This document shows, in pieces, positions 38,889-47,816 of a stretch of DNA of 64,000 nucleotides (position 1 is its first letter; each line of letters starts with the position of its first letter). Made by a program: the position numbers and the translations under genes. Below the pieces are notes generated by a model. That model saw nothing but the letters and a program-made list of their open reading frames with translations. It was not told where the DNA came from and searched no databases. Source of the stretch: Candidatus Doudnabacteria bacterium (lineage in GTDB: Bacteria > Patescibacteriota > Doudnabacteria > UBA920). Location: contig PLYC01000021.1 of the NCBI GenBank assembly GCA_003151625.1, positions 80,235-144,234 on the forward strand, given 5' to 3'.

Positions 38889-41800
38889 TTACGGCCCAAG
38901 GCAAGTTCCGGCGATTTGGCTAAGCGGACTGCTGCAACTGGCTTGTTTGGACGGCACCACGCCAATTTGGCTTAAGGCCTGCTCGGCGGCGTTGGCCGTG
39001 ACTACGTTGGCAAAGCTAAAACCCCAGGAATTAAAGACGGTAATATTCGGAAAACCGTACAAGCCACTTTTACCTACCAGCTGAACCGTACCGTTGTTGT
39101 TAATAATCTGCCCCATGCGGGAGCTATTAGCCTGGGGAGCAACAGTAACTGTCAGAGACTTTGCGGCAGTTGGATTTGGCCCATCAGTCCCCCCAAAATA
39201 AGCGGTTAAAGTGTAAGTTATTGTTTGTGTCGGAGAAACAGATATAGATGTCTTATTGCTAACCGTTCCTACGCCATTATCAATATTGATAATGGCGCCG
39301 CTGCTAACCTGCCACGACAAAGTACTGGACTGGCCTAATGTAATCGAAGGCTGGTTAGCGGTAAAAGAACTTATAACGGGCCCGCTGTTTGATTGCGAGG
39401 ATGTAACGTATATCGGCAGTAACACGCTATTATTATTTTCATTTGATTCCTGAAGCGTCTGGTGAGGATCTATGTTAACCGTTATGGAAGTTGCTCCTGT
39501 TTGATTATAAACTCCGGAAAACGCGTAAGTGCAACTCTGGTTCGTGCCAAGCCAAACTTGCGAACTACAGCTGTTATCGGAAATATTATTATTCAAACCT
39601 GTCGGCGTCTGGCCGTTATATACCGCTTCAATGCCTGGCACATAAGCCGCCGCGCCTAAGTTTGTTACTGTAAATTTAAATTCTGTAGTCTGCCCTTGGG
39701 TAACGGACATAGACCCTGCGGTAATGGTACTCATATTGCCAAAACCCAAACTTACAGTATAGTCCGGCAAAGCCGTAATCGTATTACACGTGCCGTTAAT
39801 CTGGTCCAACGCGCTGCTGCAGCCTGAGTGCTTCATCGGCACCATGCCGATTTGGCTTAAAGCCTGTTCGGCGCTGTTGGCCGCCACCACCTGGCTGAAG
39901 CTCCATCCCCAGGAATTAAAAGTTGCAATGTCCGGAATGCCGTACAAGCCCTTGCTGCCTACCAAATAAACCGTGCCGCCGTTGATAAAGGCCAGTTGCC
40001 CGACGCGGACACTGCTGGAAGTTCCGGAAACTACTGTGATTGGGAACGTCGAAGTCACAGCAAGACCGCCTTTGTTATCGGTGACCGATACGGTGATGGT
40101 ATAATTGCCAACCGCCGTCCAGGTATGCAGAACTCCAAACGGAACCCCGGACGCCGCGTTGCCGACATCAACCGAAGTATCGCCCCAGTTAACTTTATAT
40201 GTCAGGCTGTCGCCGTCGGCATCAGTAGACATAAAATTAAACTGCTGATTAGCACCGACCGTAACCGTATTGTTTACCGGCCCGAGCGACATAACCGGTG
40301 AGGACGGCAAATGATTGCCGGTTGACGCAGTGACAACATTCACATTTTGGCAAAAATCATTATTGGATTCGTTGCTTTCAGAAACCGAGTTCCTAATATC
40401 AACTCGAGCACACACCTGATTGGATCCCAGTAGAGTCAATCCAAAATTTGCCGTTACGGTAGCGGTAGCTCCTGGGGCAAGCGACGAGATGGTGCCGGCT
40501 GTCCCACCGAGATTAACTACAAAAGAAGAGGCGGATACGGAACCGCTATTTTTAACCGTTGCCGTGTAGGTGGTTGTTTGGTTTTGGATAACATCCCCCG
40601 AAGGAGTAATGCTCACAATCTGCAAATCAGGCAAACTGCTTGAGCTGCAGGCGCCGTTAGTCTGGCTGACGGCATCAGCGCAGGCTGGGTTGCGGGAAGG
40701 CACCCAGGTGCCGGAAACCGGCAATGTCGCTTCGGCGCTGTTGGCTGGTAGAACATTGCTAAAGGACCATCCCCAGGAATTAAACACCGCTACGCTCGGG
40801 ATCGGATACAAAACACTTTGGCCAACTAAGTAAACGGTTTTATCGGTCTTGTAAACCAACTGGCCAACGCGTGCGCTAATGGATGTTCCTGAAGTCACGG
40901 AAAAGATTTGGGCGGTGCTGGTACCATTAGCGTTAGTTACGACTACCGAATAGTCGCCAGGGGTAACGCTAACTATGTACTGCGGGCAAGCCGTGCCAAC
41001 CGCGCAGTTCGGCGCTAAGGTAGCCGGAACGGTAAACTGCAAAGTCTTCCCGTCGCCGGAAGTTAAGTTGCCGGCCACCAGATAACTCCTCATGCTCACA
41101 TTGTTCCCGGTGGAAGCAAAACCGCTGCCGGTAATGGTTACCGCGGTGCCCACCGGCCCGGATACGGGATTCAATGAGTTGATATTGACAACGCTGTTAG
41201 TCGGATTAACCAGACTAAAGCTTTGGCTGGTACCCGGGGCGCCATAACAATGGGTCGGGTAACTATTAGTGCACATTTGCGGCCCACTAATGGTCAGGGT
41301 ATAACTGCCAACTGACAGATTGTTGCTAATGGTCCAGCTATAACTGCCGGTATTGGGAGCGGTGGTGGTCAGACTATAGTTGCCAGAGGTACCAGTTAAA
41401 ACAATATTTAATGGGTAACCACCTGTGGTACTCGCATCCCAGGTAATCATATGAATACTGCCAAGTGCCCACTGCTCGCCGCCGGCCGGGGAAAGAATCT
41501 TGATTGAAGTGGAACTGGCGGCAGAAATTATGGTAAACGCACCGCTAGTTCCGCCTACTGCATAAGTACAGATGGTTCCACCATTACTAGCAGTACAATT
41601 ATTTACCGGATATGAAACTGCCACCTTATAATAGTTTGACACGCCCATTGTGCCGAATGTCGGACTTGCAATTGTCCAAGCATAAGATCCATTATTTGGA
41701 ACATTGGATGCAATAACTTGATAATTAGTACATGCGCTTATCATGGCAGCGGTACAATCAGTACTGCTGACCAACTCTATATTAACTGTGGGAGAAGCCG

Positions 41801-47000: not shown

Positions 47001-47816
47001 CTGGCCGATCCGGGAAGAAACAGATGAAACCGTTCCGCAGTTATTATTTATTTGGTCAAATGGGGCGGTGCATCCGGCCAACTTAGCCGGGACAATCCCT
47101 ACAATATTTAAAGCTTGCTCGGAACTGTTTTCAGCAACAACCTGACTAAAAGAAAAACCCCAGGAGTAAAATGTTTGCGCGTCGGGGAAACCGAACAGGC
47201 CGCTGTTGCCCACCAAAAAGACAGTTTTGCTGCCGGGGTTATAAACCAACTGATTAACCCGAATACTGTTTGTGTTGGCGCTTCCGGTTGATGATGTCCC
47301 GCAACTGCCGGCAATCTGAAGTAATGGGGCAGAACATCCTGTCTGGGGCGTTGGCACACTTCCTAAAATACTTAGATTCTGTTCAGCAGTATTCTCCGGC
47401 ACTATTTGACTAAAACTAAAGTTCCAGGCATAAAAAGTTGCGGCATTGGTAAAACCATACAAGCCATTTTGGCCAACCAAATAAACCGTTTTGGAGTTTG
47501 GGTTATAGACCAACTGACCGACTCGTGGAGCAGAGGTGGTATCGCCTAAAACCTGACCGGTGTATGAAAGCAACTTAAGCGGACCATGGGCTATGGCCAA
47601 TAGCGGACTTGGGTCTACGGCCGAACTAATTTCCGGATAGGCCAAAGCGGCCATGCCTCCGACCGTGGTTGCCGCGAACAAGACAAACAGCAAAGCCACC
47701 AAAGAATTGATGGGCGCGTTAAATATAGATACTGCCCAGGAGCCGATGCTCTGGGCTAGTGAATTTTTGGCAGGCGCGGACACCGCTTTGCGTTTGCCGT
47801 AAGTATAAGGGTTCAT
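44091..47816 (-). CDS. Giant secreted/surface protein (1241 aa), paralog of 38889..43895, with the same ~75-aa repeat (x3-4) and a (TP)n linker
   Basis: N-terminus [10 protein letters not shown].. is homologous to MNPYAISGRR.. of gene 1. Repeats [19 protein letters not shown].GF....F.[13 protein letters not shown].AL......P....C..P..QI...C. Contains [22 protein letters not shown]. Confidence 0.8.
   Translation of the reverse strand: [1241 protein letters not shown]

Follow-up and report, generated by a model that had tools for sequence, protein, structure and literature searches.

A two-cysteine repeat shared by two giant putative envelope proteins of a Candidatus Doudnabacteria bacterium, a candidate cell-wall- or glycan-binding module

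Two giant proteins with a common repeat

Contig PLYC01000021.1 of Candidatus Doudnabacteria bacterium (assembly GCA_003151625.1) carries, in the 64,000-nucleotide stretch analyzed here (positions 80,235 to 144,234; hereafter the window, to which all coordinates refer unless a relative is named), two genes for giant putative envelope proteins that share a repeat with two conserved cysteines. The window was also located on a metagenomic contig of 246.8 kb (ENA ERZ27254241). Both genes lie on the minus strand. The first encodes a protein of 1668 amino acids (aa) (p1; 38889..43895), in which a signal-anchor starting with MNPY is followed by immunoglobulin (Ig)-like domains interspersed with four repeat copies. 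The second encodes a protein of 1241 aa (p2; 44091..47816) that has an MNPY signal-anchor as well, followed by three tandem repeat copies, a (TP)n linker and a module of ~870 aa. An earlier sequence-only reading of the window had placed the two open reading frames (ORFs) at exactly these coordinates and with exactly these lengths.

Motif search and alignment yielded seven repeat copies. In p1 they start at aa 592, 1009, 1297 and 1593 and extend over aa 592-668 (41892..42122), 1009-1085 (40641..40871), 1297-1372 (39780..40007) and 1593-1666 (38898..39119), and this last copy forms the extreme C-terminus of the protein. Those of p2 start at aa 98, 186 and 269 and extend over aa 98-174/175 (47292..47525), 186-262 (47031..47261) and 269-345 (46782..47012); all seven are encoded on the minus strand. 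The copies are 76-78 aa long and have 17 invariant columns, including the two Cys, which are spaced C-x10-C. A six-frame scan of the whole 64-kb window with a hidden Markov model (HMM) of the repeat returned exactly these seven copies, each with an E value between 1e-39 and 1e-43. Thus, the four copies counted earlier in p1 stand, but the "3-4" of p2 are three and the total is seven rather than eight.

The sequence-only reading had called the two proteins paralogous and had raised the question of whether the genes were assembly duplicates. The repeat copies are only 72-92% identical at the DNA level, and outside the repeats nucleotide similarity between the two genes is nearly nil; an assembly duplication is therefore ruled out. 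Paralogy holds for a common 5' cassette and the repeat, but the bodies are unrelated, and p1 and p2 are mosaic rather than whole-length paralogues. What they share is a promoter, a structured mRNA leader, the MNPY signal-anchor and the repeat; the payloads differ. Similar mosaics are found in relatives, where a p2-type N-terminal cassette (49-72% identical) is joined to p1-type Ig-rich bodies (P0003-P0006, P0011).

Four Pfam domains scored above their gathering thresholds in p1: CARDB (74 vs 22.7 bits), PKD_4 (36.8 vs 27), Kre9_KNH (34.6 vs 24.6) and He_PIG (31.7 vs 24). The PKD and CARDB domains noticed earlier were thus recovered, and the Ig-like He_PIG and Kre9_KNH domains were found in addition. 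He_PIG covers aa 485-582 (42150..42443), CARDB aa 1089-1181 (40353..40631) and PKD aa 1199-1288 (40032..40301), and a second CARDB-like region lies at aa 1376-1489 (39429..39770), all on the minus strand. A whole-protein search with p2 gave no Pfam match; its (TP)n linker is present, as had been described, at aa 347-373 (46698..46778, minus strand). No S-layer (surface-layer) domain was detected in p1 or p2 with Pfam.

An undescribed repeat family and its predicted fold

The repeat had not been recognized as a named domain by the sequence-only reading, and database searches did not give it a name either. With Pfam and NCBIfam, whole p1 and p2 had no match over the repeats at E<=1, the seven single copies produced one chance match at E<=10, and no family was matched by more than one of 56 diverse family members. 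Moreover, no common Pfam family covers the repeat in 81 full-length members, and the Pfam profiles of PG_binding_1, LysM, SLH, CWB2, CW_7, SH3b, SPOR and LGFP did not match it. Searches of PDB sequences with single copies, whole proteins and the 56-sequence profile gave nothing usable. In the literature, no description was found of the motif or of a wall-binding repeat from the candidate phyla radiation (CPR), and the names of the family clusters that were looked up are nearly all "hypothetical protein."

The repeat is thus uncurated, as had been claimed, but it is not private to p1 and p2. A word-indexed homologue search with short repeat profiles returned nothing useful, and an exhaustive HMM search was required; carried out against 1.84 billion representatives of 50%-identity clusters, it found 1090 representatives at E<=1e-3 and 584 at E<=1e-10. 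Classification, Cys counts, copy counts and positions were determined for the top 150 of the 1090. Sixty-five of these 150 (tier 1) have the full 76-aa form, with exactly two Cys in 114 of 123 instances; at the two individual positions, spaced C-x10-C, Cys is retained in 110 and 117 of the 123. The remaining 85 (tier 2) match profile positions ~3-62 alone, a core of ~55 aa, which is present in three copies in 57 of the 85 proteins, mostly at the N- or C-terminus. The tier-2 sequence closest to the window repeat is the third copy of such a triple block (…GLYGIPSLAVFNSWGYSF..VVPAN.AD…). Since tier 2 matches the core alone and tier 1 the full form, the two-Cys repeat is, as judged from these alignments, a ~55-aa core with a lineage-specific tail of ~20 aa that carries both Cys. 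F, S, W, G, N and E positions, exposed-type aromatic and polar residues, are conserved at >=80% across the 123 instances.

Most complete family members (110 of 135) have an N-terminal hydrophobic segment. The partner domains found in the 81 full-length members are PKD, TIG, fn3, He_PIG, Kre9_KNH, dockerin, cohesin, Trypsin_2, CBM (carbohydrate-binding module) and beta-helix. Two architectures contain peptidoglycan-hydrolase domains: P0053 combines Amidase_2, six repeats and SpoIID, and P0070 combines SpoIID with repeats; the cluster of P0070 includes an Actinomycetota SpoIID/LytB protein, and P0155 bears the name SpoIID/LytB. The full repeat was found in 15 loci of GTDB species representatives, in metagenome-assembled genomes (MAGs) that include some titled Candidatus Doudnabacteria, Daviesbacteria or "Saccharibacteria," and among the best 150 representatives the full two-Cys form was seen in CPR MAGs only. 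That the closest repeat loci lie in these MAGs agrees with the CPR-like organism surmised from the sequence. A tblastn search of the repeat blocks against 50,697 phage genomes gave no match; phrog_9616, a family with no function assigned, was matched by 7 of the 56 family members. On the strength of these comparisons, the repeat is an undescribed domain family, of which the CPR form is a distinct subfamily.

Structure prediction for a single repeat, a step that had been proposed with the sequence-only reading, yielded a confident fold in which four strands are combined with two helices. For the alignment of the seven copies, AlphaFold2 reached a predicted local distance difference test score (pLDDT) of 93 and a predicted template modeling score (pTM) of 0.80, and DSSP assigned strands 5-7, 13-16, 21-23 and 40-42 and helices 27-32 and 45-48 in this model. 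A further short helix (67-71) is predicted between the two Cys, and the C-x10-C tail is probably closed by a disulfide.

Foldseek found no significant match of the model in the PDB. The top five entries, all below threshold, were EccB1 or EccB5 of mycobacterial type VII secretion (E 0.5-1.1, template modeling score [TM] 0.43-0.46). EccB1 also came first, with an E value of 0.044, when the 56-sequence profile was compared with PDB sequences (aligned segment vYli.gnggrygfpsaavFnSyGysf), and single members matched Pfam T7SS_ESX1_EccB (0.055) and NCBIfam T7SS_EccB (0.0087) weakly. Profile-profile alignment with hhalign against eight EccB1 repeats gave a probability of 4.5% over 19 columns; the EccB1 sequence used was identical to residues 72-480 of PDB 3x3m (72-463 in 4kk7). 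The repeats of EccB1 are ~50-55 aa long, have four strands and two helices, and resemble the wall-binding phage protein PlyCB (PMC4769845). The AlphaFold model of our repeat, whose core is of about that length and forms a four-stranded sheet accompanied by two helices, has this EccB1-type composition. Among the viral structures of BFVD, small uncharacterized actinophage proteins matched best (E 2e-3, TM 0.60). We regard a relationship to EccB and PlyCB as a weak, convergent lead that is not established.

The C-terminal module of p2 (aa 373-1241; 44094..46700, minus strand) belongs to a second family. It is all-beta, with fn3-like, beta-propeller and Ig-like parts, and had 166 matches, among them a Solibacter usitatus protein; in many, identity is 40-77% across 99% of the length. 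The family is without a Pfam model, and the module had no match among PDB sequences. AlphaFold with 36 homologues predicted an all-beta structure (pLDDT 91), for which Foldseek found generic fn3 and propeller architectures only (TM ~0.1). Many D, H, E and C residues are invariant in this second unannotated family of >100 proteins, which is possibly an enzyme. A typical homologue consists of a signal peptide and the module; some have an additional C-terminal PG_binding_1 domain (P0159, P0228, P0244, P0267), and others have an additional C-terminal tier-2 triple repeat (P0260, P0262, P0270, P0132). The strongest individual argument for wall binding by the repeat is this use, within one family, of either PG_binding_1 or the repeat as the additional terminal domain.

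Expression and export signals and the pilB neighborhood

The regions upstream of p1 (195 bp) and p2 (348 bp) are homologous and contain an identical TTTTGTGCTATAATATA, an extended -10 element of the TGnTATAAT type; TGTGCTATAATA occurs in the window at these two sites only. The element itself, TGTGCTATAAT, is located at 44027..44037 for p1 and at 47989..47999 for p2, both on the minus strand. With transcription assumed to start 7 nt past the -10 element, the leaders are 125 nt (p1; 43896..44020) and 166 nt (p2; 47817..47982) long, which bears out the individual extended -10 promoters and leaders of about 150 nt that had been predicted. The p1 leader contains hairpin 1 (43980-44003), an A-rich box (43956-43979) and hairpin 2 (43912-43954), and the loops of both hairpins read CAAAAUCA. 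The p2 leader has the same order of hairpin 1 (47940-47967), A-rich box (47913-47938) and hairpin 2 (47881-47900) and continues with a third hairpin (47825-47855). The A-rich box, AAAYAAAAACAAAAATTAA, is present in both upstream regions.

The same -10 element is found 5' of homologous genes in relatives (L002, L004, L007), and the whole leader can be aligned in five (L002:4085-4260, L003:3640-3876, L004:1085-1304, L005:4190-4410, L007:3720-4005). Over seven leader sequences, hairpin 1 has compensatory changes at 9 of 10 pairs. In hairpin 2, aligned by hand, 33 of 35 inner cells are paired, compared to 16.3 ± 4.4 with shuffled partners, and three to four pair types occur per position. The consensus has two hairpins with CAAAAUYA loops on either side of the A-rich box UUGAAACAAAAAYAAAAAUUAAU; in p2-type leaders, a third hairpin, which is long, directly precedes the start codon. 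No Rfam family was found in the window or the leader. A metagenome-wide scan for the A-rich box returned 12 matches, which were rejected as AT-rich chance matches without promoter or hairpins. The leader appears to be a structured, conserved RNA element, and we consider it a candidate cis-regulatory or mRNA-stabilizing element. An intrinsic-terminator-like hairpin with a 20-bp stem and a T-run (48055..48098, minus strand) ends the gene upstream of p2, which encodes 347 aa, directly before the p2 promoter; accordingly, the promoter of p2 is its own. From p2 to the p1 promoter, no site resembling a terminator was detected.

A homologous signal-anchor at the start of both proteins had likewise been noticed, and indeed aa 1-69 of p1 and 1-68 of p2 are 43% identical (E 1e-10). 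The leader peptide of p1 (43710..43895, minus strand) starts with MNPY, continues with a basic stretch of ~40 aa and a hydrophobic helix (FVLFAA) and then has the motif AQTE; that of p2 (47634..47816, minus strand) is homologous. The consensus is MNPY(T/V/A)Y, a basic stretch of ~35 aa, FVLFAA, AY(P/S)EIS and (R/Q)VLG, with AQTE in p1 in place of AY(P/S)E, and at least 20 family representatives (within P0002-P0064) have conserved it. It exceeds an ordinary signal peptide in both length and conservation and may be a lineage-specific export or processing signal. Both proteins have one hydrophobic helix, at ~aa 30-60 after the basic N-region, and all of their Cys (30 in p1, 24 in p2) are in local pairs, as expected for an exported, disulfide-bonded protein. 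From the hydrophobic anchor, the Ig-like domains and the locally paired Cys, p1 and p2 look extracellular. Neither has a prepilin cleavage motif of the G|(F/M)TLxE type in its first 70 aa, a lipobox or Tat motif at its N-terminus, or an LPXTG sorting signal at its C-terminus (...SQIAGTCLGP, ...NHTQISR).

A PilB/GspE-type ATPase (50033..51709, minus strand; T2SSE, E 1.1e-120; MshEN N-domain, E 9.7e-7) is encoded nearby. The sequence-only reading had put it about 2 kb downstream; it is present at a distance of ~2.2 kb, but on the upstream side of p2 with respect to transcription, and two unrelated genes intervene. One is the ORF for 347 aa (48165-49208, minus strand), which has an N-terminal hydrophobic segment but no Pfam or NCBIfam match, and for which the relatives have no syntenic homologue. 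The other is a small PD-(D/E)XK (PDDEXK_3) gene (49553-49930, minus strand), absent at this place in the relatives examined. PilC, PilM, PilT, PilD, pilins and any other type IV pilus protein were not found among the scanned window ORFs of >=150 aa. On the other side of the surface-protein genes, an EpsG-like polytopic membrane protein (37408..38841, plus strand) is encoded convergently with p1 and forms a conserved right-hand border.

The order DHH, pilB, MNPY repeat protein(s), epsG (convergent) and polA is present in five relatives (L002, L003, L005, L007, L009) and partly in three others (L004, L006, L010). The slot between pilB and epsG is occupied by one repeat protein or by two, which are 650-1940 aa long and have one to four repeats; by this comparison of gene orders, the slot is a fixed chromosomal site with variable content. 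PolA of the syntenic relatives is 71-83% identical to that of the window, so the genomes are fairly close and the pilB synteny may simply be inherited. The identity of p1 to its orthologue, 77%, is close to that of the neighboring housekeeping genes. In a more distant "Saccharibacteria" MAG, a pilB paralogue (L015:8912-10669) with 38% identity lies ~1.2 kb downstream of a gene for an N-terminal triple-repeat protein; this is a single case of pilB adjacency beyond the close relatives.

The window also encodes a Mur ligase and FemAB; therefore, the organism makes peptidoglycan. Some further features were observed. The region at ~6000-14000 has a GC content of 57-59%, compared to 40-49% elsewhere, and encodes a VWA_2 protein, an AAA_5 (MoxR-like) ATPase and ORFs without annotation; it may be an island gained by horizontal transfer. 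Three TrmB-family regulator genes are found within the 64 kb (15125-15967, 27473-28219, 58564-59331). A RhuM-Fic/DOC fusion gene (31861-32880, minus strand) adjoins a PIF1-type helicase, and the pair may be the remnant of a mobile or defense element.

Possible roles of the repeat and known counterparts

LysM, SLH, CWB2 and PG_binding_1 are modules that hold proteins in the cell wall noncovalently. The repeat could act in the same way by binding peptidoglycan or a wall polymer, with p1 and p2 as anchored envelope proteins, and we give this proposal an even chance of being right. It is the best supported of the readings, by the co-occurrence of the repeat with SpoIID and Amidase_2 and by its exchange with PG_binding_1 in the p2 C-module family, and it takes up the earlier suggestion of a carbohydrate- or cell-wall-binding module. 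According to this model, p1 and p2 would be exported by the Sec pathway and held in the membrane by the signal-anchor. From the near-consensus extended -10 element and the structured leader, they would probably be strongly expressed and abundant. The shared cassette would be joined to different payloads, an Ig-like stalk in p1 and an fn3/beta-propeller/Ig module in p2, and the repeats would bind wall glycan noncovalently and thereby fix or orient the p1 stalk and the p2 propeller module in the wall. The C-x10-C tail would staple the CPR version of the module. The anatomy of genes and repeats, the family size, a confident fold prediction, domain co-occurrence, synteny and a conserved promoter and leader are shown here; for p1 and p2, we infer that they are exported, disulfide bonded and highly expressed, as well as which ligand they bind and if it belongs to the cell's own wall or to a host.

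Several points weigh against wall binding. The repeats of p1 are distributed over the full length of the protein, between Ig domains, unlike a classic terminal anchoring block. Both proteins are already anchored in the membrane and a second anchor is not obviously needed, which leaves room for a host ligand. Peptidoglycan hydrolases are rare among the partner domains (1 of the 81 full-length members plus P0053). The likeness to EccB and PlyCB is weak (Foldseek E ~0.5, TM 0.44-0.46; hhalign 4.5%), and peptidoglycan binding by EccB is itself a hypothesis (PMC4769845).

If the same glycan or wall biochemistry were directed at a ligand on the surface of a host cell, p1 and p2 would be outward-reaching adhesins. 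We consider this possible, though rather unlikely. Among GTDB species representatives the two-Cys form is found in CPR MAGs only, and in p1 four copies are arranged along a long Ig-like stalk, one of them distal at the C-terminus, which suits multivalent outward binding. Moreover, the slot between pilB and epsG varies in repeat number and payload and its domains are reshuffled, as is typical of genes for interaction with a host. Adhesion is also favored by the finding that epibiotic growth of cultivated Saccharibacteria requires envelope proteins with polysaccharide-binding domains (PMC10633639). However, the core module is widespread outside the CPR, in free-living lineages and in secreted enzymes such as the Actinomycetota SpoIID protein, and it also partners the p2-type C-module, which is itself found in Solibacter. 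Furthermore, the identity of p1 to its orthologue is like that of its housekeeping neighbors and does not point to unusually rapid change. The architecture of the family as a whole agrees with binding to the cell's own wall no less well than with host attachment; on sequence data alone, the two are inseparable. A more far-reaching version, in which the repeat is a new class of wall- or glycan-binding domain that grips CPR hosts and the MNPY leader, the mRNA leader and pilB are the marks of a specialized, jointly regulated route by which giant adhesins are exported and displayed as non-pilin cargo of a type IV pilus-like ATPase, appears very improbable to us.

Glycan binding would not be involved at all if the repeats were modules for protein-protein assembly that associate with each other in an S-layer-like lattice or in a ring or dimer, as in PlyCB or EccB. 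The repeats of EccB, the nearest structural neighbors, pack together and build a rigid scaffold in the periplasm, and PlyCB assembles into rings of eight (PMC4769845). A strong promoter with a long structured leader, as found upstream of p1 and p2, would also fit assembly. Such a combination is typical of very abundant surface-layer genes. Nevertheless, the similarity to EccB is not significant, no S-layer domain was detected, and the repeat occurs on many unrelated payloads, including hydrolases, which fits a targeting domain better than a lattice element; we consider assembly improbable. Still less can be said for a stable, disulfide-stapled bead that has no ligand and simply extends or stiffens the protein. 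The alternation of repeats and Ig-like domains in p1 would agree with such a spacer, but the conservation of exposed-type aromatic and polar positions in the 123 instances, the recurrence of the triple block at enzyme termini and the alternation with PG_binding_1 within one protein family make it the least probable of the explanations. Coupling to PilB, in which the MNPY leader would mark p1 and p2 for a type IV pilus-like machine driven by the neighboring ATPase, as its substrates or accessories, is also highly unlikely. It could account for the recurrent order pilB, MNPY repeat proteins, epsG and polA in L002, L003, L005, L007 and L009, for the conservation of the MNPY leader in at least 20 representatives and for the distant pilB paralogue near a repeat protein in L015. 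But prepilin, lipobox and Tat motifs are missing from the N-termini of p1 and p2, the scanned ORFs include no PilC, PilM, PilT, PilD or pilin, pilB and p2 have the PD-(D/E)XK gene, the gene for 347 aa and a strong terminator between them, and the syntenic genomes are close relatives in which the order may be simply inherited.

A module that occurs in >1000 50%-identity clusters, on peptidoglycan hydrolases, proteases and giant surface proteins, and that has a confident predicted fold but no curated name is a concrete candidate for a new family. To our knowledge, almost nothing is known about how the envelope of CPR bacteria (Patescibacteria) is organized and how they hold on to their hosts. 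A small, probably disulfide-stabilized domain that can be expressed and assayed on sacculi or glycan arrays would be a practical entry to this envelope. By-products of the analysis are the second large unannotated family, represented by the p2 module, and the MNPY and two-hairpin leaders as lineage-specific candidate signals for export and regulation. Small tandem modules that target wall or glycan and sit on modular surface proteins are a familiar kind of object; current ideas are not overturned, and dark matter of a familiar type is filled in.

Among known systems, mRNAs of S-layer and other major surface proteins have long structured leaders, and p1 and p2 likewise combine a strong promoter with a hairpin-bearing leader of 125-166 nt, which differs in its conserved CAAAAUYA loops, its flanked A-rich box and the lack of an Rfam family. 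Ig-rich giant surface proteins and adhesins of CPR bacteria and others, with arrays of PKD, CARDB, He_PIG or Big domains, are built like p1, which is predicted to be surface exposed as well; p1 adds the interspersed unannotated repeat, the conserved MNPY signal-anchor and the conserved structured mRNA leader. The EccB repeats R1-R4 (PDB 4kk7, 3x3m, 7np7) are, like the window repeat, extracytoplasmic units of ~50-55 aa with four beta-strands and two helices, and both have in their core a hydrophobic strand, G-x-r/h-x-hydrophobic and then ...lG.... In EccB, however, four repeats are packed around a core domain within one subunit of a secretion machine, whereas the window repeats are free-standing beads on diverse, secreted carrier proteins, and their CPR form adds the Cys tail with its putative disulfide. 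The wall-targeting modules PG_binding_1, LysM, SLH, CWB2 and Cpl-7/CW_7 are, like the members of the repeat family, small, extracellular, arranged in tandem (often three) and terminal on hydrolases and surface proteins. They do not match the repeat in sequence, and their folds differ: PG_binding_1, SLH and CW_7 are helical and LysM is beta-alpha-alpha-beta, whereas the repeat has a predicted mixed beta/alpha fold.

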